Shown: positions 21,868-63,793 of the stretch, one piece after another
Layout: each line of letters opens with the position of its first letter
Position numbering within the stretch: position 1 is the first letter of the stretch
DNA from: Actinomycetota bacterium
Lineage (GTDB): Bacteria; Actinomycetota; Acidimicrobiia; Acidimicrobiales; Ilumatobacteraceae
Direction of reading: 5' to 3'
Assembly: GCA_009726095.1 (NCBI GenBank)
Contig: WLMZ01000001.1
Span: forward strand, 270 to 64,269
Length of the DNA stretch: 64,000 nucleotides
The notes under the pieces: model-generated
Told to the model about the DNA's origin: nothing
The model's database searches: none
Seen by the model: only the letters and a program-made list of their open reading frames with translations
Translations under genes and position numbers: made by a program

Positions 21868-21908
21868 CTACCGGCTACGGCTACCGGCTACCGGCTACCG
21901 GCTACCGA
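21868..21908. repeat. heptanucleotide microsatellite (CTACCGG)n, about 6 units (one unit 6 nt, last unit CTACCGA)
   Basis: Read directly. It lies in the divergent intergenic region, 46 nt from the rlmI-like start and 173 nt upstream of the pilA ATG. Confidence 0.9.
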
Positions 21909-22080
21909 CTCAGGGAGCTCGCCCACCCGGGGTCTGCGCCATGCCACAAAAGATTTGCAGAACTTTTCAGAAGATTTCTCAAGGTTCACCGACAACTGCC
22001 GAAACCTACTCTGCACCGGGTTGGCAAGGATTGCTCCGGTGGGTTCGTGGACAGAACAATTGCGGGAGGAACGCACCATC

Positions 22081-22446: not shown

Positions 22447-22470
22447 TCCCCTGAGAGCAAGCAACACAAC

Positions 22471-22502
22471 GAACGAGCCGGGCCCTCGGGCCCGGCTCGT
22501 TC
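22471..22502. terminator. bidirectional terminator hairpin between pilA and the convergent oxidoreductase gene
   Basis: Perfect 14-bp stem GAACGAGCCGGGCC / GGCCCGGCTCGTTC with a 4-nt loop. Confidence 0.7.
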
Positions 22503-22527
22503 GCGTTTCCCAGCGCAGCGGGCTGTG

Positions 22528-23844: not shown

Positions 23845-23926
23845 GCACGCATTCTGAGCGTGCCCAGATGACCCCACATAGAGTCGTAAGACCCGAGATG
23901 GGCTCTGCTGGAGCGGCGCGAACGCG

Positions 23927-24646: not shown

Positions 24647-24676
24647 GGCTCATCTCCTCGCTTCTGCAACGTACAT

Positions 24677-25837: not shown

Positions 25838-25887
25838 CTGACTAACCTCCGTTGGGGAGCCGCCCACCGCGGCGATGCGAAGGACTC

Positions 25888-26652: not shown

Positions 26653-26664
26653 TCCCCCGCCCGC

Positions 26665-27876: not shown

Positions 27877-27887
27877 TGGTGGGTCTC

Positions 27888-29660
27888 CTAGTTGGCAAAC
27901 AGGGTGCGGACGACTTCGGGGATGGTGGTGACGTCGGACTCGACGAGCGTCATTGCCTCGCGCAACATGGTGCGCATTCCTTGGGCAACTGCGAGGCGGC
28001 GGAGTTCCTCGGTGGTGGCCCAGCCGACGATCAGACGCCGGAGCTCGGGGGTGATCCGCAAGAGCTCGTACACACCGATGCGGTCGCGGTAGCCGGTGCC
28101 GGCGCAGTAGTTGCAGCCGGCGCCATGGAAGAACTGTGTCTTGTCGCTGCCACCACTGTGCTGGCGAAAGACCGCCACCTCGTCTGCGCCCGGGGTGTAG
28201 GGCTCCTTGCACGAGTCACAGATCCGCCGCAGCAGACGCTGGCCGATGACGCCCACCACCGACGAGGCGATGAGGAAGGCCTCAATGCCCATGTCGAGGA
28301 AACGGTGCAGAGCAGCGACGCTGTCGGTGCCGTGCAGCGAGCTGAGCACGAAGTGACCGGTGAGCGCGCTCTGGATGGCGATTCGGGCCGTGTCGGCATC
28401 GCGGATCTCACCCACCAGAATCACATCGGGGTCCTGGCGCAGGATGGCCTTGAGACCCGTGGCAAAGGTGAGACCGGCCTGATCGTTGGTCTGGATCTGG
28501 TTGATGCCGGGGAACACGTACTCGACCGGGTCCTCGACCGTGGTCACGTTCTTGCCGCTCGAGTTGATCTCCTGCAGCGTGGCGTACAGCGTGGTGGTCT
28601 TGCCCGCACCCGTTGGCCCAGCGCAGATGACCATGCCGAACGGGGCATGCACCATCTTGGAATACTGCGCATAGGTGTCACGGGGAAAGCCGAGCTCGTG
28701 CAGACCGATCATCGACCGGTTCTTGTCGAGGATTCGCATGACGACCTTCTCGCCGAACACGGTGGCCACGCTGGCCACGCGAACGTCGACGTCCCTGCCA
28801 TCGATCGAGGTCGAGAACTGCCCGTCCTGAGGACGGCGACGCTCGACGATGTTCATCCCGCTCATGATCTTCAAGCGGCTGATGAGCGCACCGTGCACGC
28901 CGATCGGCAGGCTGAAGACCTCGACCAGGTTGCCGTCGATACGGAACCGGATGCGCAGGCTCTCGTCGAGCGGTTCCACATGGATATCGCTGGCGCGATC
29001 GCGCATGGCCTGGCCGACGATGCGGTTCACCAACTGGATGACCGGCGCCTGATCGTCGAGATTGACCTCGGCCGCCAGCGTCATCATGCGCTGCTGATCA
29101 TCGGGGATGTCGAACGCCTTGACCAGCCGGTCGACATCGGCGTCGGCACGCAACGTCGTATCGATGAAGGTGCGCACTGTGGCCGGGTCACCGACGAACC
29201 AGCGCAGCGGGTGGGTGGTTTCTTTCTCAACCGCAGCGCGGCGGTAGGGAGAGGGGTCTGCAGACAGCACCACGATGGTGTCGCCGTCGAGCGCCACGGG
29301 AATCACCTGATGGGCCCGGATCACGGCCTCGGGGAGCATGTTGATGATCTCGACGTCGAGCTCGACTCCCTTCGTGTCGGCAGCAGGGAGGCCGAGCACC
29401 TTGGCAACGGCCAACGCGATCTCTTGACGACCACAGGAGAAGCGGCTCAATGCCGTCTCGGCGAACTGCAAGAGGTTGCCGTTCGCGATCTGCAGGGCGG
29501 AGGCGAGATGCTCGGCGGTGAGCTGTCCACTCTCGACCAGGATCTGGCCGACCTGCAGGCACTCGGCAGCGCTCTCACCCATCGTCGGGGCTGCACCAGC
29601 AACGGGCTCGCTGGTTGCAACCGTGGCCGCTTCTTTGGGGGGTTTCGTGAAAAGGGCCAT
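27888..29660 (-). CDS. pilB: type IV pilus assembly ATPase PilB (GspE family)
   Basis: T2SSE N-domain, Walker A GPTGAGKTTT, VEDPVEY, ILVGEIRD, and a tetracysteine motif (CDSC...CNYC). Confidence 0.95.
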   Translation of the reverse strand: MALFTKPPKEAATVATSEPVAGAAPTMGESAAECLQVGQILVESGQLTAEHLASALQIANGNLLQFAETALSRFSCGRQEIALAVAKVLGLPAADTKGVELDVEIINMLPEAVIRAHQVIPVALDGDTIVVLSADPSPYRRAAVEKETTHPLRWFVGDPATVRTFIDTTLRADADVDRLVKAFDIPDDQQRMMTLAAEVNLDDQAPVIQLVNRIVGQAMRDRASDIHVEPLDESLRIRFRIDGNLVEVFSLPIGVHGALISRLKIMSGMNIVERRRPQDGQFSTSIDGRDVDVRVASVATVFGEKVVMRILDKNRSMIGLHELGFPRDTYAQYSKMVHAPFGMVICAGPTGAGKTTTLYATLQEINSSGKNVTTVEDPVEYVFPGINQIQTNDQAGLTFATGLKAILRQDPDVILVGEIRDADTARIAIQSALTGHFVLSSLHGTDSVAALHRFLDMGIEAFLIASSVVGVIGQRLLRRICDSCKEPYTPGADEVAVFRQHSGGSDKTQFFHGAGCNYCAGTGYRDRIGVYELLRITPELRRLIVGWATTEELRRLAVAQGMRTMLREAMTLVESDVTTIPEVVRTLFAN

Positions 29661-32285: not shown

Positions 32286-32797
32286 TGTTGGACCGTGTGG
32301 TCTCCGATGACGTCGCCGCAATGGCGTATGCACTGCACCAGGCGACGCTGGCACTTGCGCACGACGATGTACCCGTTGGTGCAGTGGTGGTGCGCAACGG
32401 CGTCGTGATCGCTGCCCGGCACAACGAGCGCGAACTCACCGGCGACCCCACCGCCCACGCCGAGATCCTGGCCATCCGCGACGCCGCCGAGCTCATCGGC
32501 CATTGGCGGCTCGAACAGTGCACGCTGTACGTCACCCTCGAGCCGTGCACCATGTGCGCCGGCGCGTTGGTCAACGCCCGCGTGCCGCGGGTCGTGTTCG
32601 GCGCCACCGACCCCAAAGCCGGAGCCGGAGGCAGCCTGTACAACGTGCTTGCCGACCCGCGGCTGAATCACCGTTGCGTTGTCGAGACCGGGGTGATGGC
32701 CGACGAGTGCGGAGCGATCCTGAAGACCTTTTTCGGGCTCCGACGGGCGGCCGGGCGGGCTTCAGCGGCGGCGAACGCCGTTGATGAGCCGGCGTAG
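32285..32797 (+). CDS. tadA: tRNA adenosine(34) deaminase
   Basis: HAEILAIR and TLEPCTMCAGAL (CDA zinc motifs). ATG 32285 shares its A with the tRNA 3' CCA. The alternative start is ATG 32321. Confidence 0.9.
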   Translation: MLDRVVSDDVAAMAYALHQATLALAHDDVPVGAVVVRNGVVIAARHNERELTGDPTAHAEILAIRDAAELIGHWRLEQCTLYVTLEPCTMCAGALVNARVPRVVFGATDPKAGAGGSLYNVLADPRLNHRCVVETGVMADECGAILKTFFGLRRAAGRASAAANAVDEPA

Positions 32798-34012
32798 AGC
32801 GCCTTTGCGGCTATCGCTGAGCGGCTGCCGGGCATCGGATTGAGCGTTCGGCTGGGCAGCGATCACCGGGCCTGCGGCCGCAGTGGTGGCCATCAAGTCA
32901 GCCATCGTTGGCCGGTCGGCACTGCCCGGTGCGGTGACGTGCACCGGACCGAAGTTGACGCCGGCACCTCCGAGAGCCGACTGCGTGGCGGCCTCGATCG
33001 CGGCGATCGCGTCGCGTACTGCGGCGGCAACATCTATGGGGACCGGGATGGAGTCGCTGTCGTTGTCGCTGTCGCTGGCGGGCTCAACGGAATCTCTGGT
33101 TGGTTGCTCGATGATCGGCGTCACGACCTGTACAGGCGCCGAGATCATCGAAACGAACAGCGGCGCAGTATCGGTGGCGGGGACAACGGGGTTCGACGCG
33201 GTAATCGGCTTGATCGGCACGAACGACTGCGTCGTCGAGATGCTTGCCAGGGGCGGCAGCGGCGCTGGCGCTGGCTCGGCGGGGCGCTGCTCGAGGGCCG
33301 CTGGCTGGGCCGGAGGCGTCACGACGGCGGGTTCGACCAACGGCGCCACCACCGGGAGAATACGGCCCGTGTAGGCGGCCGGTTTGGGCGGCAGCGTCGG
33401 TAGCGGCTGCAGGAGGGACGCTGGATCGACATCGACGACGTTGTCGCTGCGCGCGGGCACGGAGGCAGTCGGTGACGGTGGCTCCCACGGGCTCGCCGGC
33501 ACCGCACCGGCAGGTTCCGCTGCTGCGGATGCAACCGGGACGGACCAACGCACCACACCAGAAGGATGGTGCCGATACATGGTGATCGACGACGCCAGAA
33601 CCTGAAGTTGGGCGATCTCGGTCAGGGTCTGCTCGGTCATCAGCTCGAGTACCAGTTCCACCACGTCGCGCAGCACCGTGGTGTCACGGTCGAACAGGCG
33701 GCCAAGGTAGTCGACCCCGTTCAGCCGTACGATGCCCCGATCCAGTTGATCGGGGGTGATCGCGCCGGCCATCACCAAACGAGCGGCTAGCGGCTCGTCG
33801 GTGTCACGTTCGGCCAGGTAGACGACGCCCGAGTTGAGGTAGATCGTGATTGTCCCAGACAAGGCGGTGATCAACGACAGCTCGCCCGTCAGGCGAGCGT
33901 GACGCGCCTCGTCGATCAGTTCCCACGCAGCACGTGTCGGTTGCACCGTGGCTGGGTCGGGTTCGGCAGTGTGGCGTTCGGTGTCCATGGCATCATTCTG
34001 GGTCATGGTCAT
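32762..34012 (-). CDS. PATAN/DUF4388-like N-terminal domain protein with long Pro/Ala-rich C-terminal region
   Basis: ARLTGELSLITALSGTITIYLNSGVVYLAE...LVMAGAITPDQL resembles DUF4388. The remaining ~250 aa are low complexity. Its ATG overlaps the GTPase stop (ATGA). Confidence 0.5.
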   Translation of the reverse strand: MTMTQNDAMDTERHTAEPDPATVQPTRAAWELIDEARHARLTGELSLITALSGTITIYLNSGVVYLAERDTDEPLAARLVMAGAITPDQLDRGIVRLNGVDYLGRLFDRDTTVLRDVVELVLELMTEQTLTEIAQLQVLASSITMYRHHPSGVVRWSVPVASAAAEPAGAVPASPWEPPSPTASVPARSDNVVDVDPASLLQPLPTLPPKPAAYTGRILPVVAPLVEPAVVTPPAQPAALEQRPAEPAPAPLPPLASISTTQSFVPIKPITASNPVVPATDTAPLFVSMISAPVQVVTPIIEQPTRDSVEPASDSDNDSDSIPVPIDVAAAVRDAIAAIEAATQSALGGAGVNFGPVHVTAPGSADRPTMADLMATTAAAGPVIAAQPNAQSDARQPLSDSRKGALRRLINGVRRR

Positions 34013-34593
34013 CGGGTTCCTCCGTGACCGGACAGGGCGAAGTCGTTCGATTGGAGCAGGGCGACCAGCACCTCTGCCACCACCTCGCGACCCGAGGCAG
34101 GATCCACGAGTTGGCAGGGGATGACCGGCACCGACATCTTGGCACCGAGGGCATCGGCAACCCGGCGCGCCTGCGCAGGGTCGCCACAGCGGTTCACGGC
34201 GATGACCAATGGCGCCTCGAGGCCGGTCATCACCAGGGTCAACATCTGGCGTGCCTCGGCGAAGGTATCGGGGGCCTCGGCGTCGATCACGAAGGTCACA
34301 ACGTCGACATCGGCTTTCAGGATGTCGGTCATGAAGCGGAATCGATCCTGGCCGGGCGTTCCGAACATCAACAGGTGGATGGTCTCCTCGCCGTCCTCGA
34401 GACCGTCGAGGACGAACGTACCGAAGTCCATCGCCACGGTCGTGTTCTCCTTCACCTCGGCCTCGTCACCGGTGGTCGCCACCTCGGTGGTCACGACCGG
34501 GCTCTGCGAGATCGATTGGATCAACGATGTCTTGCCTGCAGCGAATGGGCCCGTAACCAGGATCTTGAAGGTGTGCTCTGTGAGATGCGACAC
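34009..34593 (-). CDS. small Ras-like GTPase of the MglA/CvnD (conservon) type
   Basis: G1 GPFAAGKTS and G3 FGTPGQDRF. 194 aa. A strong SD (GGGGAGG) precedes the GTG. Confidence 0.8.
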   Translation of the reverse strand: MSHLTEHTFKILVTGPFAAGKTSLIQSISQSPVVTTEVATTGDEAEVKENTTVAMDFGTFVLDGLEDGEETIHLLMFGTPGQDRFRFMTDILKADVDVVTFVIDAEAPDTFAEARQMLTLVMTGLEAPLVIAVNRCGDPAQARRVADALGAKMSVPVIPCQLVDPASGREVVAEVLVALLQSNDFALSGHGGTR

Positions 34594-34596
34594 GAT

Positions 34597-35034
34597 TCAG
34601 CGACCTCCCCGGACAACGGTGCGTAACGAGTCCGCACGGGACCTCACCTCGGAATTGATGTGATGCAGGTTGATGCTCGGACGGGCGAGCACCGTGAGCA
34701 CGCCCTCCTTGCCGACTGCGTACACGATCACAATGCCAGTGTCAGAGCGCACGATCACCTCTTCCAGTTCACGACCACCCACCATGCTCATCAGTTGTCC
34801 GGCCAGCCCCATGGTCGCGGCAATCATCGCCGACCGACTCGGGTCGTGCATCAGATCGTCCGAGTGCGCCAGGCTCCGACCGTCAGCACTGGCCACTGCC
34901 ACGCCAATCACACCGGCAACCGACCGGACAATCGAGTTCAGAATGGCCTGGGGATTCTGTCGCTGGTGAACCAACGACGCGACCGACACAGCAGCAGCGA
35001 GGGGGTTCGGGTTGATCATGATGAGATCCGTCAC
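34597..35034 (-). CDS. Roadblock/LC7 domain protein (MglB/CvnB-like)
   Basis: 145 aa. GVIGVAVASADGRSLAH...MIAATMGLAGQL...VIVRSDTGIVIVYAVG is the typical Roadblock pattern. Confidence 0.75.
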   Translation of the reverse strand: MTDLIMINPNPLAAAVSVASLVHQRQNPQAILNSIVRSVAGVIGVAVASADGRSLAHSDDLMHDPSRSAMIAATMGLAGQLMSMVGGRELEEVIVRSDTGIVIVYAVGKEGVLTVLARPSINLHHINSEVRSRADSLRTVVRGGR

Positions 35035-35162
35035 GGCGTAGGTATCGGCACGTCTTGGCCAACTCTTGAACCGGACTCCTGTCGAGTTCTCGGCCTCCGA
35101 ACCCAGATTTCGGGGCCCACACGGGTGCGAGAGTCCGTTTCGTTCCCGCTAGCCTGACGAGC

Positions 35163-51313: not shown

Positions 51314-52657
51314 TTACCCGCTGGCGGGGCGCACTTCCACCTGCGCCGAGCGCCCGGTGGCGCCAACGGTGATCCGCCAGCCCTCGATCGTCCACGAAGA
51401 TCCTGGGGTCGACAGCAACTGCAGGTGAGGCGCCGTGCTGCCGAGCGTGGCCTGCACGCGCGTTGCACCCGTGCACGGACCCGCTGTTGCGTCGCCCGTC
51501 GTGACCTCGGTCGCGGCATCGGTACCGAGTTCAGCGGCACACGCAGCAGGCGATTGGTCGATGTGATGCACCGCCAGCCCGGCGGCTGGAAGAAAGTCAT
51601 TGAAGCCGTCGGCTGTGAGGTATTCGACCGAGAGGAACGAGCCGTCTGCGATCGGCAGCACCAGCAAACGCAGCCCCTGCGCGCCGGTGGATGGCCAGAG
51701 ACTGAACGCGCCGCCTCCGGGCGCTGCAACCGCGAGATCGTCGGCGGTCAGCCAGCCGAGCGCCAATCGGTTGACGGCGAGCGTGTCCGGTCCATTCCGG
51801 CGAGCGGGCTCGGCGTCGCGCGGCGAGGCGCTGTTGCTCATCAGGTCGATGCCGCTCGCGTGCTGATCGGTGCTGCCGAAATCGCCGCTGTGCGGAAGGC
51901 CGAGCGTGTGCCCGATCTCGTGCTCAATCAGGTCGACCGCCGGGACCGCGCCCCAGTCGGGATGAAAGTCAGAAGCGCCGACGTACAGGGCACGGCGCGT
52001 CTGGCGGGCTGGGCAGAACTCCGTCGTGCAGGCCGAACCGGCCAGCCCCCACCCGCCCGGCTCGGTGGCGAGATGCTCGGCATTGGCCACCACCAACACC
52101 GCAGCCGTGGTGGCGCCGCTGGCATCGATGGCCCGCTGGAGACACTGGTCATGGGTTTCGCCCGGCGCCATGGTGAGCGTCAGCCCAGCGACGAAGTGCG
52201 GGTGATAGAGCCCGTGGGACAACGCCTCGAAGTACGGGGTAACGGTCGTGTCGAGTTTGGCGGCCACGTCGTCGGGCACCAGGTCCAGCCGCAACGGCAG
52301 CCGGCCGTAGATCGCGTCGGTGGTGTCGAGCGGCACGGCGCACACGAACACCTCGAACTGATCGTTGGTGGGCGCCGGCGAGCTGCCCAGGATCAGGCGC
52401 AGGCCAACCGGAAAGTCGGCTGATGCGCGCACGACCGAACCAACGGGGACGGTCAGGGTTCTGGAGTCGTCGTTGCTGCACGAGGCCCCGAACAGCGCGA
52501 TCGGGATACCGAGCAACGACACCGACGTCGCCCGGGAAAAGAATCCTGAACAATTCTTCAACAAACGCTCAAGTCGGCCACTGTGCCTGCCGATACACCA
52601 TCGGCAGCGTCGCGAATACGCGACCTGCGATGCTGCGACGGTTGGTCTCCCCTCCAT
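51314..52657 (-). CDS. secreted metzincin-type zinc metalloprotease (start uncertain)
   Basis: HEIGHTLGLPH (HExxHxxGxxH). Candidate starts are ATG 52657, or TTG near 52561-52564, which would give a lipoprotein-like signal (...LLGIPIALFGASC). Confidence 0.65.
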   Translation of the reverse strand: MEGRPTVAASQVAYSRRCRWCIGRHSGRLERLLKNCSGFFSRATSVSLLGIPIALFGASCSNDDSRTLTVPVGSVVRASADFPVGLRLILGSSPAPTNDQFEVFVCAVPLDTTDAIYGRLPLRLDLVPDDVAAKLDTTVTPYFEALSHGLYHPHFVAGLTLTMAPGETHDQCLQRAIDASGATTAAVLVVANAEHLATEPGGWGLAGSACTTEFCPARQTRRALYVGASDFHPDWGAVPAVDLIEHEIGHTLGLPHSGDFGSTDQHASGIDLMSNSASPRDAEPARRNGPDTLAVNRLALGWLTADDLAVAAPGGGAFSLWPSTGAQGLRLLVLPIADGSFLSVEYLTADGFNDFLPAAGLAVHHIDQSPAACAAELGTDAATEVTTGDATAGPCTGATRVQATLGSTAPHLQLLSTPGSSWTIEGWRITVGATGRSAQVEVRPASG

Positions 52658-52740: not shown

Positions 52741-53400
52741 TCACGATGCTGTCGCCCGTTCGAGCAGCCCCAGATATGTGCTGCGGGACACGTCGACTGC
52801 CCCCAACGAGCGGAGGTGCTCGGTGGTCCACTGCACGTCGAGCAACAGCGCTCCCGCACGACCGAGTTCGTCCACCAACGCCACGAGAGCAACCTTTGAT
52901 GCATCGGTGGCCTCGGAGAACATGCTCTCTCCGGCGAAGAGTCCACCGACCTTCACGCCGTACAGCCCACCCACGAGACGAGCGTCGGCATCGAACACCT
53001 CGACGCTGTGTGCCCAACCCAGCGCGTGCAGGCGGGAGTAGGCATCGACGAAGTCCTGGTTGATCCAGCCGTGTGGACGACGCGGATCGCTGCAACGCGT
53101 CATCACCTCGCGAAAACATGTGTTGAACCGCACGTTGTACTTCCGGCAACTCTGACGCAACGACTTCGACACGTGCAGGCCATCCAGTGGGATGATGCCA
53201 CGCGGGTCGGGTGACCACCAGGCCACCTCCCACCAATCGATCGGCATCGGGAACAAGCCGCTGCGGTAAGCAGCCAGCAGCGTGCCCGGTTCGAGATCGG
53301 CACCGACACCGGCCAGACCATGTTCGTCGGCGCGATGCGCCAGGGGGAGCCGCCAGCGCGAACGCGGTGGCTCCACAGGCGAGGCATCGAAGGCGGTCAC
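52741..53400 (-). CDS. aat: leucyl/phenylalanyl-tRNA--protein transferase
   Basis: YRSGLFPMP...WWSPDPRGI...GGLYGVKVGGLFAGESMF. Confidence 0.9.
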   Translation of the reverse strand: MTAFDASPVEPPRSRWRLPLAHRADEHGLAGVGADLEPGTLLAAYRSGLFPMPIDWWEVAWWSPDPRGIIPLDGLHVSKSLRQSCRKYNVRFNTCFREVMTRCSDPRRPHGWINQDFVDAYSRLHALGWAHSVEVFDADARLVGGLYGVKVGGLFAGESMFSEATDASKVALVALVDELGRAGALLLDVQWTTEHLRSLGAVDVSRSTYLGLLERATAS

Positions 53401-53451
53401 CGCACCAGCATGCCCGACAAGAATGCGTTGTTCAGTGCGCGAGCGACTGAA

Positions 53452-54309
53452 TCAGCGTGAGTAGTCGAAGAACCCGCGACCGCTCTTGCGGCCCAAACGA
53501 CCAGCGGCAACCATGCGACGCAGCGTGGGAACTGCGGCGTAATTGGGATCACGGAACTCGGCATACAGTGCATCGAGGATGGCCAGCGAGGTGTCGAGCC
53601 CCACCAGGTCGAGCAGCGCGAACGGGCCCATCGGAAAGTTGCAGCCACCCTTCATCGCCGTGTCGATATCGGCAATGGACGCCGTGCCCTGCTCGCTGAG
53701 GCGCACCGCATTGTTGAGGTACGGGAACAACAACGCGTTCACGATGAAGCCGGCCTGATCCTTGACCTCGACGGCGTCCTTGCCGCACGCCACGGCGAAC
53801 GCAGTGGCCGCTGCGATCGTGTCGTCGCTGGCGGTGAGCGGCCGGACGATCTCCACGAGCTTCATCATCGGGGCCGGGTTGAAGAAGTGAATACCGCACA
53901 CCTTGTCGGGGCGTTGGGTCACCATTGCCAGTTCAACCACGGCGAGCGTGCTGGTGTTCGTGGCGAAAATTGCGTTGGGCTGCACGACCTGCTCGAGCTC
54001 GGCAAACAGTTCCTTCTTCACTGCCAAATCCTCGATCACGCTCTCGATGACGAGATCGCAGTCGCGGAGCGCACCGAGGTGATCGGTGGCGCTGACCCGG
54101 CCGAGGATGACCAGGCGCTCGTCGTCGGCGAGCTTGCCGCGCTCCACCTGCTTGGCCAGGTTCTTGGTGAGCGACGCCACCATGGCGTCGGCGCTCGCCT
54201 GCGTACGCGATCGTAAGATGACGTTGTAGCCCGCTTTGGCGGCAACCTCGGCCAACCCGGATCCCATGATCCCCGAACCCAAGATGCCAACTGTCGTGAT
54301 GTTGTCCAT
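53452..54309 (-). CDS. 3-hydroxybutyryl-CoA dehydrogenase
   Basis: VGILGSGIMGSGLA, TNTSTL, HFFNPAPMMKLVE. Confidence 0.9.
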   Translation of the reverse strand: MDNITTVGILGSGIMGSGLAEVAAKAGYNVILRSRTQASADAMVASLTKNLAKQVERGKLADDERLVILGRVSATDHLGALRDCDLVIESVIEDLAVKKELFAELEQVVQPNAIFATNTSTLAVVELAMVTQRPDKVCGIHFFNPAPMMKLVEIVRPLTASDDTIAAATAFAVACGKDAVEVKDQAGFIVNALLFPYLNNAVRLSEQGTASIADIDTAMKGGCNFPMGPFALLDLVGLDTSLAILDALYAEFRDPNYAAVPTLRRMVAAGRLGRKSGRGFFDYSR

Positions 54310-54384
54310 TTCATGACGCTACTTACCGGCGGGTAACCAACTGAAGCCGGACGGCCGACAATGCCGATGTCCTAGGATTCGGAC

Positions 54385-55578
54385 GTGGTTCAACGAACGA
54401 TCTTGCGGCCACTACGGGCATTTCTCGCCACAGAGGCCGCTGGAGGAATCCTGGCCGTCGGTGCGGCCATCGCCGCTGTCGTCTGGGCCAATGCCGCGCC
54501 GCACAACTACGAGTCGTGGTGGTCGACCGAGGCGGCCATCTCTGTCGGTCACCACGTCCTGCGGCTCGACCTGAAGCACTGGGTCAACGACGCGCTGATG
54601 GCCATCTTCTTTCTGGTCGTCGGTCTGGAGATCAAGCGCGAGTTGGTGCAGGGCGAACTGCGGGTGCCCCGACGGGCCGCCCTGCCCGTTGCTGCAGCGC
54701 TCGGTGGGATGGTTGTGCCAGCAGCGCTGTTCGCAATCATCAACACCGGCCAACCCACCATCCGGGGTTGGGGCGTGCCGATGGCCACCGATATCGCCTT
54801 GGCGTTGGGGGTCATTGCGCTGATCGGGCGCAGGATCGTGCCGGCATCATTGTCGTTGTTCCTGCTCGCCGTCGCAATCGTCGATGACATCGGCGCCATT
54901 GTGGTCATCGCTGTCTTCTACAGCAACGGCATCCGGTTCTCCTGGTTGGCACTGGGCGTCGCAATGGTGGCGCTCACCATCGCGATGCGACGCCTACGGG
55001 TGGGAGCGATGGGCCCCTATCTCGTGGCGGGGACCGTGTTGTGGTTCGCTCTGCACGAAGCAGGGATCCACGCCACCATTGCCGGGGTGATCATGGGCCT
55101 GCTCGCACCCACGACCGCCGTGTTGTCCTCGGGTTCCACCAGCGTGGTCGAACGACTCGAACACGCCCTACACCCATGGTCGAGCTTTGTCATCGTGCCC
55201 ATCTTCGCCCTCTCCAACGCCGGCATTCGGCTGAACAGCGAACTGTTCGACGGGGTCCTCAGCGCACACGTGTTCTGGGGAATCATCGTCGGCCTGGTGA
55301 TCGGCAAGCCCGTCGGTATCACCCTGGCATCGTGGTTGGCCGTGCGGACGGGGGTGGCCGAGCTACCCAACGGCGTGCGCATGTCACAGATTGCCGCCAT
55401 TGGCGCCGTTGCCGGCATTGGTTTCACCGTCAGCCTGTTCGTGTCCGACCTTGCGTTCGGTAACGCCGTAGATCTCGGCCACGACAAGTTCGCCGTATTG
55501 GTGGCCTCGATTTCGGCCGGGCTGATCGGCGCGACCGCCCTGCGTGCATCGTCGCGACGGCAAGCAACCAAAGGCTGA
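54385..55578 (+). CDS. nhaA: Na+/H+ antiporter NhaA
   Basis: WVNDALMAIFFLVVGLEIKRE and ATDIALALG. Confidence 0.9.
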   Translation: MVQRTILRPLRAFLATEAAGGILAVGAAIAAVVWANAAPHNYESWWSTEAAISVGHHVLRLDLKHWVNDALMAIFFLVVGLEIKRELVQGELRVPRRAALPVAAALGGMVVPAALFAIINTGQPTIRGWGVPMATDIALALGVIALIGRRIVPASLSLFLLAVAIVDDIGAIVVIAVFYSNGIRFSWLALGVAMVALTIAMRRLRVGAMGPYLVAGTVLWFALHEAGIHATIAGVIMGLLAPTTAVLSSGSTSVVERLEHALHPWSSFVIVPIFALSNAGIRLNSELFDGVLSAHVFWGIIVGLVIGKPVGITLASWLAVRTGVAELPNGVRMSQIAAIGAVAGIGFTVSLFVSDLAFGNAVDLGHDKFAVLVASISAGLIGATALRASSRRQATKG

Positions 55579-55603
55579 GCTGCCGGTCGAATACAGTGAG
55601 GCA

Positions 55604-56233
55604 ATGACCGGAACGCTTGCACTCCTGGGTGGTGGCCCCTTCGAGGCCAATGACGAACTCGACCGTCGACTGATCGCTGCGGCGGCTGCCACCGAGGTGG
55701 TCGTGTTGCCCACAGCGGATGCGTTCGAACACCCCAGCAGGCTCATCGACACCGCACGACAGTGGGGTGAGCGCATGGGCGTCTCCATCGATGGCCGGTT
55801 GGTGCTGCGCCGGGCGGACGCCAACGACACCACGCACGCACGGGCGGTCGAGCAGGCGCGCATGGTCTATCTGGTCGGCGACTCACCCCTCCATCTCCGT
55901 TCGGTCCTGAAAGATGCCGCCACCTTCGAGGCGTTGCGCAGCGTCATCGCCAACGGTGGCGTCGTGGCCGCCACCGGCGCCAGCGCCGCATGCCTGTGCG
56001 ACCCCATGACCGACCCACGCGGCGGCGCGTTCACGTTGGGTCTGGGCCTGGTTAACGGGCTCGCCCTGCTGACCGAGTCAGAGACCTGGTCCCCCGAACG
56101 CCTGCATCGCACGTTGAAGCTGGCCAAGGGTTTCGCTGTGGCCGTGTTACCCACGGGCAGCGCACTGCTGCGGGCTGACTCAACCTGGGAAATGGTCGGC
56201 AACGTCGAGCTTCACGGCGACCTCACCAGCTGA
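55604..56233 (+). CDS. type 1 glutamine amidotransferase-like / peptidase S51 (cyanophycinase-like) protein
   Basis: LALLGGGPF...VVLPTA...MVYLVGDSPLHL...GASAA. Confidence 0.55.
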   Translation: MTGTLALLGGGPFEANDELDRRLIAAAAATEVVVLPTADAFEHPSRLIDTARQWGERMGVSIDGRLVLRRADANDTTHARAVEQARMVYLVGDSPLHLRSVLKDAATFEALRSVIANGGVVAATGASAACLCDPMTDPRGGAFTLGLGLVNGLALLTESETWSPERLHRTLKLAKGFAVAVLPTGSALLRADSTWEMVGNVELHGDLTS

Positions 56234-56296
56234 ACGATTCCACCCGAACGATTCCACCCGACCGGCGCCACCTGGCCGGCGCCAGCGGAACGGTTG

Positions 56297-57136
56297 CTAC
56301 TGCTCGGTGATGGTGACCTTGGTGATGGAGATCGGCTCCTTGGTGGGCACGCCATTGGATGCCGCAGGATCGGCTGCCGCCTCGAGGCCGCGCACCGAGG
56401 TGTCGAAGCCGTCGGTGACCTGACCGAGCAGGCTGTACTCGGCAGGCAGGGCCACGCCGGCGTCACCGGTGATCACGAAGAACTGGCTGTCGTTGGTGGT
56501 GGCGCCTGACGCCTTGGCCATGGCCACGGTGCCCAGGGCGTACTTGCCGCTCTTGGGCGCCTCCACGGGCACGGAGATGCCGGCGCCGCCCGAACCGGTA
56601 CCGGTGGGATCGCCACACTGCACCATGAAGTCCTTGATGGCGCGATGGCAGGGCGTGCCGTCGTAGAAGTGGTAACGAGCCAGGTACACGAACTGGTTCA
56701 CGTTCAGCGGCGAGTTCACAGCGTCGAGCGCAACCGTATAGCTGCCCTTGTTGGTCTCGATCAGCGCCGTGTAGGTCTTTCCAACGGCGATGCAACTGGG
56801 GGCGGCAGCCTTGAAGGCCACAACGCGGGGCGCAGTGCCATCAGCGGCGGGGCAGGGGTAAGCGCCTGACGCGTCGGTTGCAGGGGGCGTGCCGATGGTG
56901 GTGCTGGGCAGGCCGACGTCGGTGGCCACGGTCGTGGTGGTGGCCGACGTCGGGGTGCTCGAGGTGTCGCTGCCGAACAGGCGCACGAGCAGGAACACGG
57001 CCACGATGAGCGCCGGCACGCCGACACCGATCTGAAGGCCACGCTTTTTCGTCTTGGCCTTGCGAGCGTCGCGCGCAAGCTCCTCGAGCTTCAGCTGACG
57101 GTTGGCTTTCTGACGTTCACGCTTGTCGGTACCCAC
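56297..57136 (-). CDS. membrane-anchored cyclophilin-type peptidyl-prolyl isomerase
   Basis: Basic N-terminus plus TM. FHRAIKDFMVQCGDPTGTGSGG and SQFFV. Confidence 0.9.
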   Translation of the reverse strand: MGTDKRERQKANRQLKLEELARDARKAKTKKRGLQIGVGVPALIVAVFLLVRLFGSDTSSTPTSATTTTVATDVGLPSTTIGTPPATDASGAYPCPAADGTAPRVVAFKAAAPSCIAVGKTYTALIETNKGSYTVALDAVNSPLNVNQFVYLARYHFYDGTPCHRAIKDFMVQCGDPTGTGSGGAGISVPVEAPKSGKYALGTVAMAKASGATTNDSQFFVITGDAGVALPAEYSLLGQVTDGFDTSVRGLEAAADPAASNGVPTKEPISITKVTITEQ

Positions 57137-57213: not shown

Positions 57214-57291
57214 ATGGAGAAGATCAACAAGGCCATGGGTCAGGCCATCGACAAGAACGGCTCAAGGAGACGACGTTGCGTGTCGATATGA
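57214..57291 (+). CDS. candidate 25-codon upstream ORF (MEKINKAMGQAIDKNGSRRRRCVSI)
   Basis: Read directly. The first 15 codons are GC3-rich, like genuine genes here. Its TGA overlaps ATG 57288 of the large ORF (ATGA). No obvious SD. Confidence 0.25.
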   Translation: MEKINKAMGQAIDKNGSRRRRCVSI

Positions 57292-60200
57292 ACAGCACAG
57301 CGTTCGCTCGCCGCGCACGACAGCACACGGATCAGCCAGAAGCGAGACAGCCACATCATGCACGTCGGGACACCATGAGCCAGCGGAAGAAATCAGATCC
57401 CCAGCCTCGCCACGGCATTGGGCTCGACGGCTTTGTGGATCCTCAGTCAACGTCGGTGCACCGGCTCGGCCAACAGTTCGGGCTGGTTGCGTTGGCCGTC
57501 GGCATTGCATATCTGGTGTGGCGCTGTGGTTGGTCGTTGCACGGCGCCGGGGCATCGGTTGCCTGGTGGTTGGCCGTTCCCGCCCTTGTCGTGGAGGTCA
57601 CTGGTCTGCTCTGCGTTGCCCTGCTCGTCTGGGCCCTGTGGCGTCAACCGGGCACGATGCCCAAGATCCACCTGGTCAACTCGTCGAAGCACGCCAACGA
57701 GCCGGACTACGACGTGGCGATCGTCGCCACCGGAAGATCACTGGAGGACCTGCGCGCCACACTGGTGGCGCTGCACCTCGATCCGCTCCGACCGGATGCG
57801 CTCGTCATCGATCATTCCCGACGGCTCGAAGTGGCCCGACTCGCCGCCGAGTTCGACGCCAATTTTCGGGTGCCCCACGCCAGCGACACCACCGGGCTCG
57901 CCACAGCGGCTGCAGCATCGCGCCGCCAGTTCATCCTCCTCCTCGATGCGGGGGACATCCTCGCTGCAGGGGCGGCACGATCGCTGGCCCAGTGGATGAC
58001 CAACGACCGCGTCGCCGCGGTGCAGGGTGTTGTCACCGCCTCGCATGGCGACTCGGCCGAGCACGGACCGGACGGCCGGCACGACCTGACCTTCGAGCGC
58101 ATCGGGCTGAACCCGGCCCTCGGTGCACGCGGCACGGGCATCGTGACGGGCAGCGGGGCGCTCATCCGCCGTTCGGCCCTCGAGGGCATCAACCTGACCG
58201 ATCGCCCCCGGTACCGGGTGCTGTGGGAACTCATGCCGCAATTCGCCACCCGGGGCACGCTGGTCATCGCCGCATCCGGCCCGGCAGTGGTCGCCGAGAA
58301 GCCGCTGACATCGGCTCCCGCCGTCGCCGCCGATCGACGCAGCCGGGCCGACGCTGGTTGGCACCTGCTGACCGGTTCGCATGGTGCCCTGCGGGCCCGT
58401 GGGCTGCACCGGCGCGACCGCATGGCGCTCGCTGCCTGGGCCGTCCGTTCGATCGACGGATTGCGCCGTGCCGGCTTGGCTGGCGTCGTGCTGGGTGCGT
58501 TGTTGGCCGGCCGCGCTCCGTTCGCCGCCGACCCATCAGCACTCCTGTATTTGTGGTTACCGGCCTTTGTGCTCGCCTCGGTTTCGCTGGCGCTGTTGTC
58601 CGGTGGCGCCCTTCGACCCGGAGATCGACTGCGCGGCTCGGTACGGGCAGTCGGGTTACCGGTCGGTTTCGTGGTGGCGATCAGCTCGGTGCTCGTGATT
58701 CGCGGCATCTCCGATCGCTTCACCCATGCCCTGCACCCGCTCGATCACAACGTCCAGATCGGCCTCTCGGCGGTTTCCCTGTGGCTGCTGGCGGGTTCGC
58801 TGGATTCTCTGCGGCTGCTGGCCCGCCGACGTCAGAACCGGCGAGCGATGCGCCTCGGGGCGTCGGGTACCGGGCGTCTTGGCGAACTCGACGTGTACGT
58901 CTCGGATCTCACGATGCTCGGTGCCGGCCTGCTGGCCGATCACGCTGTCGATGTTGGCGAGCACCTGCAGCTGTCGTTCTCGGTGCCCAGCGAAACGGGC
59001 ATCACCTCGCTCCAGGTGCCCTGCACCGTGCGCAATGTTCGCCCCGACCTGCTCAGCGCCTGGCGCATCGGCGTCGAATTCAACGACGTCGATTCCTACG
59101 CGCTCAACACGCTGGCTGAGTGCTGCGCCGTGCTCCCCGCTCGTGGCGTGTTCGCCGGCGAGCAACCCCTTTCCGGGCAACTCGACGACAACCCCTCGGC
59201 CAAACTCGGACCTCGCCGGATCGCCCTGCAGGTTGCCGCGCTGCTTGCACTCGCCGGGGTCGTCTCCTCCACGGCACCAATCAACGCAGAGGCCAGTGCT
59301 CCATCCATCCGTTTGGTCTCTGGGGTCGTGGTCGACACGAGTGATCCGCCCGTGCCTCCGTCAGCCACCACGACCGCCGGCGCTCCCGGCAGCGCGGGTC
59401 CCGACGCCACGACCGTTGTCGGGATCGGCACCGGCACCGACGACACGTCGCCCAGTGGCTCATCACCAACCGACACATCACCAACCGGCACATCACCCAC
59501 CGACACGGTCCCTGACGGCTCCTCCCCTGCGGAGCCAGCGACGCCAACCGACCCAGCGGCGACGGTCCCTACGTCCTCGACGATGCCGTCCGGATCCGGT
59601 GATGCTGGCGGCCCCGGCATGAGCGGGATCACCGTGATCGGCGTGTGCTCGTTGGATGCCGGCGATGACCTGACGTTCGGGACCAGCGACGACACCTACG
59701 GCGCAACCGTGAGCACCATCACCGATGCCCTCGGGCACTACACGCTCGCCCTCGACGGTCTGGCCTGCTGGGTCTCGATCGAGCCACCGGCCCTGCCCTT
59801 GCGGGCAGCATTCTCCACCGGTGGACCGTCGATCGGCGAAGCAATGCTGGTCGACTTCGGCCACCCCGGAGCCGTCTCCATGCGGCCCGTGCTCGTGGAT
59901 CGGCCGATGAACCCCGTCTCCGTGTCCCCAGCGGCCGCCGGGTCAGAAACCGCCGTGCTCGGCGACCGGGTCTGGATCGATCAGAACTCCGACGGCACCC
60001 AACAGCCGAACGAGGCCGGGGTGGCGGGCGCCACCGTGACCCTGTACGGCGCAACGGGTACAACGCTCGGCACCACGAGCACCGGCACCGACGGCAGGTT
60101 CAGCTTCACCCGGCTCGCCAGCGGGATGTACAGCCTGGGCGTGTCGAACCTTCCTGCTGGTCTGCGGGTGCCTCACGTGGATCCGCTCACCTCGCGGACC

Positions 60201-60449
60201 CCGCTGGTGGCAGTGCGCGACGGAGAGCAGATGTCGAGCGCTGACGTCGGCGTTGTCCAGACCGCTGCTGGCGCTCTCGAACCCATCGTGTTGCCGACGC
60301 CCAATGCACATCAGCTCAACGTGCCCGGTGGATCGAGCCCGTCGGAGCTGCCGACACTGCTGATCATCCTGATGGCGGCGTTCCTGGGGGGCAGCGTGCT
60401 GTTCGCGTCAACGCAACCTATTCGGGGTCGTCGTCCGATTTCGCGATGA
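57288..60449 (+). CDS. multidomain membrane protein: BcsA-like GT2 region (degenerate motifs) + PilZ + extracytoplasmic SdrD-B-like domains + C-terminal TM anchor
   Basis: TM pair, then a GT2-like region (DYDVAIVATG...LLLDAGD...GSGALIRRSALEG), more TM segments, and PilZ motifs RQNRR and DLTMLG. After an internal TM come a P/T/S linker, DRVWIDQNSDGTQQPNEAGVAGATVTLY...GTDGRFSF and a terminal TM plus RGRR. Start is TTG 57276, ATG 57288 or ATG 57375. Confidence 0.65.
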   Translation: MNSTAFARRARQHTDQPEARQPHHARRDTMSQRKKSDPQPRHGIGLDGFVDPQSTSVHRLGQQFGLVALAVGIAYLVWRCGWSLHGAGASVAWWLAVPALVVEVTGLLCVALLVWALWRQPGTMPKIHLVNSSKHANEPDYDVAIVATGRSLEDLRATLVALHLDPLRPDALVIDHSRRLEVARLAAEFDANFRVPHASDTTGLATAAAASRRQFILLLDAGDILAAGAARSLAQWMTNDRVAAVQGVVTASHGDSAEHGPDGRHDLTFERIGLNPALGARGTGIVTGSGALIRRSALEGINLTDRPRYRVLWELMPQFATRGTLVIAASGPAVVAEKPLTSAPAVAADRRSRADAGWHLLTGSHGALRARGLHRRDRMALAAWAVRSIDGLRRAGLAGVVLGALLAGRAPFAADPSALLYLWLPAFVLASVSLALLSGGALRPGDRLRGSVRAVGLPVGFVVAISSVLVIRGISDRFTHALHPLDHNVQIGLSAVSLWLLAGSLDSLRLLARRRQNRRAMRLGASGTGRLGELDVYVSDLTMLGAGLLADHAVDVGEHLQLSFSVPSETGITSLQVPCTVRNVRPDLLSAWRIGVEFNDVDSYALNTLAECCAVLPARGVFAGEQPLSGQLDDNPSAKLGPRRIALQVAALLALAGVVSSTAPINAEASAPSIRLVSGVVVDTSDPPVPPSATTTAGAPGSAGPDATTVVGIGTGTDDTSPSGSSPTDTSPTGTSPTDTVPDGSSPAEPATPTDPAATVPTSSTMPSGSGDAGGPGMSGITVIGVCSLDAGDDLTFGTSDDTYGATVSTITDALGHYTLALDGLACWVSIEPPALPLRAAFSTGGPSIGEAMLVDFGHPGAVSMRPVLVDRPMNPVSVSPAAAGSETAVLGDRVWIDQNSDGTQQPNEAGVAGATVTLYGATGTTLGTTSTGTDGRFSFTRLASGMYSLGVSNLPAGLRVPHVDPLTSRTPLVAVRDGEQMSSADVGVVQTAAGALEPIVLPTPNAHQLNVPGGSSPSELPTLLIILMAAFLGGSVLFASTQPIRGRRPISR

Positions 60450-61727: not shown

Positions 61728-61970
61728 GTGGCTATTCTGCGACTGTTTGCATCGGCTCGCGAGGCAGCCGGCACCGGACGCGACGACGTGCCGGGGCACA
61801 CGGTCGGCGAGCTCCTCGCCACCGCGCAGGCTCGCTACGGTGAGGCATTCGCAGCGGTGCTGAGCAGCTGCCGAATCTGGGTCAACGGAGAATCGGCAAC
61901 CGCCGATACTGTCATTTCTGCCCGTGACGAAGTGGCTGTGCTGCCACCCGTGTCGGGTGGAGCGGTCTGA
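61728..61970 (+). CDS. MoaD/ThiS-family sulfur-carrier-like protein
   Basis: 80 aa with a beta-grasp-like pattern. It ends ...VLPPVSGGAV, i.e. Gly-Gly followed by two residues. Confidence 0.6.
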   Translation: MAILRLFASAREAAGTGRDDVPGHTVGELLATAQARYGEAFAAVLSSCRIWVNGESATADTVISARDEVAVLPPVSGGAV

Positions 61971-61979
61971 GGAGAATTC

Positions 61980-62486
61980 ATGGACAACCCAACATCTGAC
62001 CCGTCAGCTGACCCATCGTCGCTGAGCCTTGCCGACCTGCGCGCGCTGCGGGCCAAGCTGCAGGCCGACGACGATGCCATCAGCTACGTGCGCCGTCTCG
62101 TGCAGGGACGGCTCGATCTGGTGCTGGCCGAGCAGCAGCGACGAGTCAGCGGCAACGAACGTGATGTATCCGAGTACCTACCCGCCATCTTGGGGCGCCA
62201 GCTCACCGGTGGTCCGGCGCGACCGCCGCGACCCACCGAGGACGCCAGCGAGCACCCGCTGGCCATCGAGCTCGACGAGCTCTGCCGCGGTCTTGGCGCC
62301 AACCACGTGACAGAACTCGATGCAACGCAATTGTCTGCGCTGTCCTCGGGCCTCCAGGAGTTCGAGCAGGCGCGCTCACAGGAGCGACGCGATCTGTTCG
62401 GTCGTCTCGATGCACTCACCGCCGAGCTCGTGCGCCGCTACCGCGACGGCGAGGCCAGCGTCGACGGCTTACTCGCCGACGGGTGA
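61980..62486 (+). CDS. RsiG-like helical protein with c-di-GMP-binding-type motif
   Basis: Residues 31-46, DDAISYVRRLVQGRLD, fit [E/D]x3Sx2Rx3Qx3D. Residues 129-144, EQARSQERRDLFGRLD, fit at 4 of 5 positions. Confidence 0.5.
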   Translation: MDNPTSDPSADPSSLSLADLRALRAKLQADDDAISYVRRLVQGRLDLVLAEQQRRVSGNERDVSEYLPAILGRQLTGGPARPPRPTEDASEHPLAIELDELCRGLGANHVTELDATQLSALSSGLQEFEQARSQERRDLFGRLDALTAELVRRYRDGEASVDGLLADG

Positions 62487-62549
62487 GCCCGGCGCCAGGC
62501 GCACCACCTGAGCCTGGCAGCAGCATCAGCACCGGCCCCAGTGGCGGAA

Positions 62550-62573
62550 TACCGACCAAGTCGGTAGGGTTTT
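62550..62573 (+). terminator. weak intrinsic terminator candidate
   Basis: 7-bp stem TACCGAC/GTCGGTA, loop CAA, then GGGTTTT. Confidence 0.3.
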
Positions 62574-62581
62574 GACTCATC

Positions 62582-63793
62582 GTGCAACGGCTCGCTGTGC
62601 TCTCTCTCCACACCTCGCCCCTGGCCCAGCCCGGGTCGGGCGACAGTGGCGGCATGAACGTGTATGTGCGCGAGCTGGTCTCCGCCCTGGCCCAGGCTGG
62701 CGTCGACTGCACCACCTACACCAGGGCCTCGCGGCCCGGGCTGCCCGAGGTCGTGCAGGTCGAACCGGGCCACCGCGTCGTGCACCTGCCGGCCGGCCCG
62801 TTCGACCTGGCCAAAGAAGACCTGCCCCATGTCGTGACCGAGTTCGGTGATGCGGTCATCGACCACCTCAAGAACGGTCCGGGGGCCGACGTGGTCCACG
62901 CCAACTACTGGCTCAGCGGCCTCGTGGCGCACCGGGTGAAGCACGAGCTCGAACTGCCCTTCGTCAGCACCTTCCACACCCTGGCGCGCGTCAAGGCCGA
63001 GGGTGGCGACCCCGAGCCGGCGTGGCGCGAACGGGCCGAGGCCGAGATCATCAACTGTGCCGACGCCATCTGCGTCAGCTGCACGGAGGAGGAAAGCCAG
63101 TTCCGGCGCCTCTACGGCGACCCGCAGGGTCGCATCGAGATCGTCTCGCCGGGCGTGGAGCACGCGTTCTTCGCCCCCGGCGACAAGCGCGGGGCGCGGC
63201 ACGCCCTGGGGCTCGGCTCGGGTCCGGTGCTGTTGTTCGTCGGCCGCATCCAGCCGTTGAAGGGACTCGATGTTGCGGTACGGGCGCTGAGCGAGCTGCA
63301 CCGACCGGATGCGCGCCTGCTCGTGGTCGGGGGCGCCAGCGGGCTCGAGGGCAGTACCGAGGTTGCCCGAATCAGCACCATCATCGATTCGCTCGGCCTG
63401 CGCGACCAGGTGATCTTCGTCGACCCACAGCCCCACCACATCCTGTCCACCTACTACCGGGCGGCCGATGTGGTCGTGGTGCCCAGCCGCAGCGAGAGCT
63501 TCGGCCTGGTCGCGCTCGAAGCCGCTGCGTGCGGCACTCCCGTGGTCGCCAGCGCCGTTGGTGGCTTGCTCACCCTTGTCGATGACGGCCTCACCGGCTA
63601 TCTCGTCGCTGGCCGCGACCCCTCGCACTTCGCATCGCGCATCGCCACCATTCTCAACGACCCCGCACTCGCCACCTCCATGAGCGTGCGTGCCGCCGAC
63701 CGCGCCCGCCGTTACACATGGAGCTTTGCCGCCGCACGACTGCGCCGGGTGTACTCCGACCTCGCAGTGCGCGAGCTCGTTGCCTGCTCGTAG
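62582..63793 (+). CDS. mshA: D-inositol-3-phosphate glycosyltransferase (mycothiol biosynthesis)
   Basis: LSLHTSPLAQPGSGDSGGMNVYVRELV is the MshA N-terminal signature. C-terminal GT4 EX7E region (PSRSESFGLVALEAAACGTPVVA). Confidence 0.9.
   Translation: MQRLAVLSLHTSPLAQPGSGDSGGMNVYVRELVSALAQAGVDCTTYTRASRPGLPEVVQVEPGHRVVHLPAGPFDLAKEDLPHVVTEFGDAVIDHLKNGPGADVVHANYWLSGLVAHRVKHELELPFVSTFHTLARVKAEGGDPEPAWRERAEAEIINCADAICVSCTEEESQFRRLYGDPQGRIEIVSPGVEHAFFAPGDKRGARHALGLGSGPVLLFVGRIQPLKGLDVAVRALSELHRPDARLLVVGGASGLEGSTEVARISTIIDSLGLRDQVIFVDPQPHHILSTYYRAADVVVVPSRSESFGLVALEAAACGTPVVASAVGGLLTLVDDGLTGYLVAGRDPSHFASRIATILNDPALATSMSVRAADRARRYTWSFAAARLRRVYSDLAVRELVACS

Follow-up and report, generated by a model that had tools for sequence, protein, structure and literature searches.

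The open reading frame (ORF) at 61980-62486 of a 64,000-nt stretch of actinobacterial DNA (contig WLMZ01000001.1 of assembly GCA_009726095.1; the whole stretch is called the window here) encodes a genuine member of the RsiG family of anti-sigma factors, an ortholog of the twin-motif, monomeric type. Judged by homology, which is the basis for ligand and partner alike, the protein most probably binds a dimer of cyclic di-GMP (c-di-GMP) and sequesters a WhiG-type sigma factor encoded elsewhere in the genome. To our knowledge RsiG-WhiG is the only sigma/anti-sigma pair armed by c-di-GMP, and we know of few outputs of this pair outside Streptomyces, where it governs sporulation, and Rubrobacter, where it governs type IV pili. 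Neither the type of protein nor its occurrence in this lineage is new: both are known from the curated Pfam family PF22802 and from reports on Acidimicrobiales and Ilumatobacteraceae (PMC8325347 and its supplementary information), and the locus adds no new mechanism. What it adds is a Phe variant of the binding motif and a set of conserved sigma-28-type promoters that predict outputs.

The 168-aa ORF proposed in an initial annotation of the window was borne out from ATG to TGA on the + strand, with a Shine-Dalgarno GGAG 6 nt 5' of the ATG. The annotation had described the product as a small helical protein with the RsiG-type c-di-GMP-binding motif, an interpretation that is supported here, and had suggested a profile search with the RsiG family. 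The product matches PF22802 ('RsiG-like' in Pfam) with an E-value of 2.4e-26 and 91.7 bits against a cut-off of 27, the similarity extends beyond the motif, and the match consists of two stretches, the pattern expected of a twin-motif protein. In a phmmer search against all PDB sequences, residues 13-166 align with Streptomyces venezuelae RsiG (6pfj_T, deposited under the name 'AmfC protein') at E 4.1e-14, and the N-terminal helix, which carries motif 1, is homologous to that of the Rubrobacter radiotolerans RsiGs 7lq2, 7lq3 and 7lq4 (E ~1e-5). No NCBIfam model matches the product. Whole-protein profile and sequence similarity thus both place it in the RsiG family.

The predicted fold points the same way. 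An AlphaFold2 model built on 35 homologs (mean predicted local distance difference test score, pLDDT, 85.3; predicted template modelling score 0.77) contains two long helices, residues 17-57 and 115-155, that bear the two motifs, plus three short helices, and the long helices, α1 and α5, form the antiparallel coiled coil of the 6PFJ/6PFV fold in this predicted structure. When the model was compared with the PDB by Foldseek, the top four matches were RsiG chains of 6PFV and 6PFJ, the crystals of RsiG-WhiG-c-di-GMP (template modelling score 0.61-0.68, probability 1.00); the fifth match has an E-value of 0.38, and only RsiG chains are significant. Helical proteins often contain short spaced motifs with many E, R, Q and D residues, and the initial annotation had worked from the motif alone, so that a charge-rich helical motif arisen by chance in an unrelated small coiled-coil protein had to be considered. 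The profile E-value, the full-length PDB sequence match and a fold match exclusive to RsiG rule this out, and the chance of it is vanishingly small.

Which of the two known RsiG types is this? The single-motif type has one motif per chain, 80-120 aa and self-association, as in the R. radiotolerans protein (PDB 7LQ2-7LQ4), a homodimeric anti-sigma factor. Here one chain of 168 aa carries both motifs, which makes the protein the twin-motif type, and it should therefore act as a monomer, unlike Rubrobacter RsiG. With S. venezuelae RsiG (vnz_19430; PDB 6PFJ/6PFV) it shares homology over its full length, with ~34% identity over the fold alignment, and has in common the helix order, the twin-motif monomer architecture, the base-reading Arg and Asp, the residues that contact sigma-2 and sigma-4, and the C-terminal ...RRYR[DE]GEA.VD.LLA helix. 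The two proteins differ in three respects: motif 1 opens with Asp here and Glu in S. venezuelae, the stacking residue of motif 2 is Phe here and Gln there, and the inter-helix loop here is a different one, rich in Pro and Arg.

In the S. venezuelae complex the motif Arg residues bind the Hoogsteen faces of the central guanines and the Asp residues the Watson-Crick faces of the outer guanines, Gln stacks on the outer guanines, Glu touches ribose hydroxyls and Ser positions the other residues; the quadruple mutant R71A/D79A/R169A/D177A no longer binds c-di-GMP (PMC7005675). The counterparts of these binding-essential residues, the R and D of both motif copies, are invariant in 35 clade members. 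On this template, α1 and α5 would pack as an antiparallel coiled coil with one motif each, and the two motifs together would clamp a partly intercalated c-di-GMP dimer. In this clamp the central guanines would be read on their Hoogsteen faces by R38 and R136 and the outer ones on their Watson-Crick faces by D46 and D144, and Q42 and F140 would stack on the outer bases. A fall in c-di-GMP would then release the sigma factor.

The initial annotation had found the motif E(x)3S(x)2R(x)3Q(x)3D twice, with E replaced by D in the first copy and Q by F in the second. Both copies and both replacements stand, and S, R and D are exact in each; the two changes, to D from E and to F from Q, are conservative. 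The annotation had also counted the F as a mismatch; the residue was read correctly, but F is the normal state of this clade and a common variant in the family. Among the 35 clade members, S35, R38, Q42 and D46 never change, position 31 is D in at least 90% and E otherwise, and E129, S133, R136, F140 and D144 are invariant without exception. Of the 120 closest homologs listed, 119 could be scored: helix 1 reads D..Q in 110 and E..Q in nine, and helix 2 reads E..F in all 119. A search of 1.84 billion cluster representatives returned 822 RsiG-like clusters at E <= 1e-3 (289 at <= 1e-10), and among the best 150 the 110 twin-motif representatives have H (56), F (48), Y (3), Q (2) or L (1) as the helix-2 stacking residue.

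Strictly, F at this position lies outside the published Q/H set. Published work describes a Gln/His alternation only, and only in helix 1 (PMC8325347, PMC7005675), and the published logos show the helix-α5 motif as strikingly conserved, with Q. With neither copy canonical and no c-di-GMP-making enzyme seen in the window, the E-to-D and Q-to-F changes could be taken to weaken the site, leaving a degenerate RsiG that has become a constitutive anti-sigma factor or an inactive remnant. This is quite improbable, given that the deviations are fixed in the clade under evident purifying selection (F in 119 of 119, with R, S and D invariant), that Phe would be no worse than the tolerated His at stacking on guanine (C. 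woesei RsiG, with His at the stacking position, still binds c-di-GMP; PMC8325347), and that Asp retains a carboxylate to contact the ribose hydroxyls. The window also encodes a PilZ-domain protein and an MshEN-domain PilB, and the organism therefore appears to use c-di-GMP. After the census of homologs and cluster representatives we rejected the Q-to-F 'defect' as a sign of degeneracy: by sequence comparison, both deviations are normal family variation, and Phe is a plausible stacking residue of motif 2. For annotation, a useful working definition of the binding motif can be widened to [E/D]x3Sx2Rx3[Q/H/F/Y]x3D.

The surfaces that hold the sigma factor in S. venezuelae are retained as well. 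The WhiG contacts R54, R57, Y69, I183, Y187, L197 and L198 of S. venezuelae RsiG (PMC7005675) correspond in the phmmer alignment to R21, R24, Y36, L150, Y154, L164 and L165 of the protein described here; in the 35 clade members L165 is at least 90% conserved and the other six do not vary. The end of α5 and the last helix align to S. venezuelae ...AEIARRYREGEAQVDDLLA and match its sigma-4-contacting surface, and within this segment L150, V151, R153, Y154, R155, D156, G157, A159 and L164 are invariant. Conservation in the clade is highest in the loop PARPPRPTEDASEHP between the long helices, in which R81, P82, P83, R84, P85, H92 and P93 never vary; we infer that this inter-helix loop corresponds to the loop with which Streptomyces RsiG covers its c-di-GMP dimer. 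Coordinates of these parts, and of the other features described below, are collected in Table 1.

Table 1. Positions of rsiG, its parts, the candidate promoters and other genes; coordinates are those of the window unless a related locus is named.
Feature	Position	Strand	Remarks
rsiG homolog, 168 aa, twin-motif (monomeric-type) RsiG	61980..62486	+	ATG 61980, TGA end 62486; PF22802; PDB 6pfj_T
Motif 1, helix α1, residues 31-46, D31-x3-S35-x2-R38-x3-Q42-x3-D46	62070..62117	+	DDAISYVRRLVQGRLD
Motif 2, helix α5, residues 129-144, E129-x3-S133-x2-R136-x3-F140-x3-D144	62364..62411	+	EQARSQERRDLFGRLD
Inter-helix loop, residues 76-93	62205..62258	+	TGGPARPPRPTEDASEHP; clade alignment; PMC7005675
C-terminal end of α5 and last helix	62415..62477	+	LxAELVRRYRDGEASVDGLLA
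Candidate sigma-28/WhiG-type promoter before rsiG	61882..61908	+	TCAA-N16-GCCGATA, perfect match, 71 nt before the rsiG ATG
Sigma-28/WhiG-type promoter before the PilZ gene	57262..57288	+	TCAA-N16-GTCGATA; PilZ-gene ATG 57375
Candidate sigma-28-type promoter before the type IV pilin gene	21979..22005	+	TCAA-N15-GCCGAAAC, ~75 nt before the pilin ATG (22082)
Sigma-28-type promoter before the Roadblock/LC7-small GTPase operon	35043..35069	-	TCAA-N16-GCCGATA, perfect match
Sigma-28-type promoter, no obvious downstream gene	52569..52595	+	perfect match
PilZ gene, 1024-aa membrane protein	57375..60449	+	Pfam: PilZ E 2.7e-10, SdrD_B E 4e-19
ThiS/MoaD-family ORF, 80 aa	61728..61970	+	PF02597 E 9.4e-15; 9 nt upstream of rsiG
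XRE helix-turn-helix gene in relatives	L001 10492-10869; L004 10492-10875		
Type IV pilus cluster	21955-29660		pilin, PilT, prepilin peptidase, PilC, PilB
Pilin	true start ~22082	+	N_methyl motif
PilT	24677-25867	-	
Prepilin peptidase	25852-26652	+	
PilC	26665-28212	-	
PilB	27888-29660	-	MshEN-family N-terminal domain, PF05157 E 1.9e-9
Roadblock/LC7 protein and small Ras-like/ATP_bind_1 GTPase, operon genes	34009-35034	-	
415-aa Pro-rich protein, same operon	32762-34012	-	no Pfam match

What might the sigma factor held by this RsiG transcribe? The sigma-28/WhiG-type promoter motif TCAA-N16-GCCGATA, with at most one mismatch, occurs six times in the window against 0.51 expected, and none of 100 dinucleotide shuffles reached six. 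Four of the six matches stand at sensible places, as does a fifth site with a 15-nt spacer; the other two fall inside genes and are probably chance matches. By sequence comparison, the PilZ-gene site makes a strong phylogenetic footprint: it recurs in 47 of 56 related loci, with four more just outside the search box, and across the relatives the -35 and -10 elements keep their 16-nt distance and the sequence between them is free to vary. The motif background of at most 0.024 per kb per strand predicts ~1.4 chance matches over these sites. From this footprint it follows that the genomes should have a sigma factor of the sigma-28 family, with the PilZ gene among its targets. The site before the Roadblock/GTPase operon ends 8 nt before the operon's GTG, and the transcript may therefore be leaderless; an AT-rich stretch precedes the candidate before the type IV pilin gene.

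The site before rsiG itself lies within the 3' end of the preceding ThiS-family ORF. It is found in the same place, with at most one mismatch, in 15 of 84 loci scanned (the window included), four of which have the canonical TAAA; it is perfect in the window and its closest relative, reads TAAA...GCCGATA in four other genomes and is degenerate elsewhere, and its -10 core is lost in two related loci, L004 and L006. As a firmly conserved promoter it was therefore only partly supported, the coding position and the lost cores both counting against it, and we regard it as a candidate feedback promoter whose conservation could also be explained by coding constraint.

Downstream of the remaining site, at 52569-52595, come a 145-nt gap and, beyond it, a Leu/Phe-tRNA-protein transferase gene in antisense orientation. 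Its -35 and -10 are kept, with a variable spacer, in the related loci L001, L004 and L005 and in ~17 loci overall. No conserved ORF was found downstream in 17 loci, and the only Rfam match there is a sub-threshold aspS RNA (23.5 bits against 42.5). This promoter may drive an unannotated small or antisense RNA in the interval down to 52741. An AT-rich stretch precedes it, and the 145-nt gap holds a hairpin with an 11-bp stem (CCGGTGTCGGC...GCCGACACCGG).

Together these sites give the predicted outputs of the RsiG-controlled sigma factor: the PilZ gene, which is best supported, the type IV pilin gene, the Roadblock/GTPase operon and, possibly, the rsiG gene. The result is a testable regulon prediction for a freshwater lineage that is abundant: type IV pili, a module with a small GTPase and the gene of a surface protein with a PilZ domain. 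If rsiG is read from a sigma-28-type promoter, the arrangement would be one of negative feedback, as with FlgM, the anti-sigma-28 factor of flagellated bacteria. The flgM gene is itself transcribed from a sigma-28 promoter, in parallel with the candidate before rsiG, and FlgM likewise sequesters a sigma factor of the sigma-28 family through sigma-2 and sigma-4. It differs from RsiG in having an unrelated fold and no nucleotide ligand, and in being released by secretion instead of by a fall in c-di-GMP.

Several observations weigh against a c-di-GMP-dependent hold on WhiG, or against the wider reading of the promoters. The partner searches covered the 64-kb window, which is part of the genome. 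The window ORFs were scanned with Pfam as concatenated pseudo-proteins, the interval 52741-57136 being annotated by synteny with relatives only, and within this scope no Sigma70, GGDEF or EAL domain was found. Escherichia coli FliA, used as a phmmer query on every stop-to-stop ORF of 50 aa or more, also returned nothing. On these searches the window holds no WhiG/FliA-type sigma, GGDEF, EAL or HD-GYP gene, in agreement with the initial annotation, which had seen no FliA/WhiG-type sigma gene, diguanylate cyclase or phosphodiesterase there. The same FliA search over 86 related loci (1.35 Mb) found no sigma-28 gene within 10 kb of rsiG, and a WhiG sequence used as a probe only, which recovers real FliA at 7.7e-56, had no match in the window or the 86 loci. 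The partner is therefore unobserved. The published binding measurements known to us are on RsiGs with Gln or His at the stacking position, and the loop that would cap c-di-GMP (residues 76-92) is of low confidence in the AlphaFold2 model (pLDDT ~66). The promoter candidate before rsiG sits in coding sequence and is kept in only ~15 loci. Finally, the consensus found here, CTCAAG...GCCGAT, fits the published consensus of both WhiG1, the flagellar, RsiG-independent clade, and WhiG2 (PMC12871210), and the promoters therefore prove neither a sigma factor of the RsiG-controlled clade nor control by RsiG.

The missing sigma gene has a ready parallel. The negative FliA searches mean that whiG is unlinked to rsiG, and in Streptomyces rsiG and whiG are likewise unlinked (vnz_19430 and vnz_26215; PMC7005675); RsiG is reported never to occur without a WhiG homolog, its partners being of the WhiG2 clade (PMC12871210). 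What is linked to rsiG is a conserved series of genes in the order peptidyl-prolyl isomerase (-), PilZ gene (+), YgjP-like (-), histidine phosphatase (-), ThiS-family (+), rsiG (+), in many loci an XRE-type helix-turn-helix (HTH) gene (+), an MshA-like family 4 glycosyltransferase (+) and YbjN (+). The ThiS-family ORF precedes rsiG in 50 of 79 loci and is probably co-transcribed with it, and the 288-aa database entry P0069 is a fused ThiS+RsiG gene call; we know of no ThiS-like protein with a functional tie to RsiG. The rsiG stop codon and the HTH gene (~125 aa) share 4 bp in 60 of 77 related loci, which suggests translational coupling. With partners so close at hand and no sigma gene nearby, could the RsiG fold have been turned into a c-di-GMP receptor for a non-WhiG target, such as the XRE HTH regulator or the ThiS-like protein? 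Such a switch of partner is improbable: the retained sigma-contact residues would not be expected after it, and, besides the Streptomyces precedent for unlinked genes, the HTH gene is absent from the window and from 16 other loci in which RsiG is intact, and sigma-28-type promoters are conserved around rsiG. In the window (62483-62581) an apparent clean gap of ~325 bp takes the place of the HTH gene, with its first ~45 nt and last ~25 nt left before the MshA-like gene. No Logan contig from four lake metagenome runs spans the deletion junction (62469-62621 is uncovered), and a more abundant co-occurring strain carries the HTH form. In the 85%-identical relative L001 (GCA_043753895.1) an extra gene of prepilin type (N_methyl; 10970-11482) stands between the rsiG-HTH pair and the MshA-like gene, with no sigma-28-type motif (at most one mismatch) found before it.

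In 49 of 55 loci rsiG has the PilZ gene upstream of it, and the initial annotation had put the two 1.5 kb apart; 1531 nt separate rsiG from the PilZ stop at 60449. Its product has a PilZ domain at residues 484-584 and an SdrD_B/prealbumin-like domain at residues 861-932, and residues 150-310 give weak, sub-threshold matches to the GT2-like Glycos_transf_2 family (E ~1e-3 to 4e-4). The protein shows no standard fusion of the cellulose-synthase type, and the longest ORF, from 57123, overstates its N-terminus.

To return to RsiG as the c-di-GMP-dependent keeper of a WhiG-type sigma factor, the conserved neighbourhood allows a larger and more tentative picture, in which, in freshwater Ilumatobacteraceae-like Acidimicrobiia, a WhiG-type sigma factor reads this neighbourhood and the PilZ-gene product is gated twice by c-di-GMP. 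High c-di-GMP would shut down transcription of the PilZ gene through RsiG-WhiG, and the PilZ domain would switch the protein itself with the opposite sign; the result could be viewed as an incoherent feed-forward circuit that delivers a pulse of surface-polymer or adhesin activity. The regulon would extend to rsiG, the type IV pilin gene, the Roadblock/GTPase operon and the unannotated transcript by the Leu/Phe-tRNA-protein transferase gene, and the change of Gln to Phe would give the c-di-GMP site of RsiG a third functional form. As a whole this scheme is possible and somewhat doubtful.

The nearest relatives place the switch in a widespread group. The best named database matches of the rsiG product are metagenome-assembled genomes of Ilumatobacteraceae, at 66-70% identity, the window DNA occurs in freshwater and lake metagenomes, and the host belongs to the uncultured Acidimicrobiia of fresh water, close to Ilumatobacteraceae. 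An exact-sequence look-up of the window's own protein gave no record. When each species was represented by a single genome, a scan found RsiG relatives in 290 genomes; the best 80 of these are by label nearly all Acidimicrobiia or unclassified actinobacteria, with three labelled Bifidobacterium, and the closest of them is JANYCT010000057.1 at 85% identity. The switch is thus present in 290 species-level genomes and, among the best 80, mostly in uncultured lake and soil Acidimicrobiia. Twin-motif RsiGs have been reported in three of four Acidimicrobiales species (Schumacher et al. 2021; PMC8325347). Those of Ilumatobacter coccineus (YM304_37910, in the list of RsiGs of the supplementary information), Acidithrix ferrooxidans (AXFE_25810) and Ferrithrix thermotolerans (PMC8325347, supplementary Table S1) belong to the same class and family as the protein described here. 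They are listed bioinformatically only, in a text that describes no motif variants, neighbourhood or candidate regulon.

S. venezuelae is a sporulating filament and the host here a unicellular freshwater bacterium, and the output therefore cannot be sporulation driven by whiH and whiI. Rubrobacter offers a closer comparison, in that RsiG-WhiG drives type IV pilus genes there and sigma-28-type promoters stand by type IV pilus genes in both Rubrobacter and the window. In other systems the MshEN module binds c-di-GMP, and the MshEN-domain PilB is therefore a third candidate c-di-GMP effector in the window. A tandem repeat with a 7-nt unit (GGCTACC/CGGCTAC, ~5-6 copies) occupies 21868-21910, between the end of a minus-strand methyltransferase gene and the pilin promoter region. 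The Roadblock/GTPase/Pro-rich operon resembles MglA/MglB or conservon (Cvn) modules.

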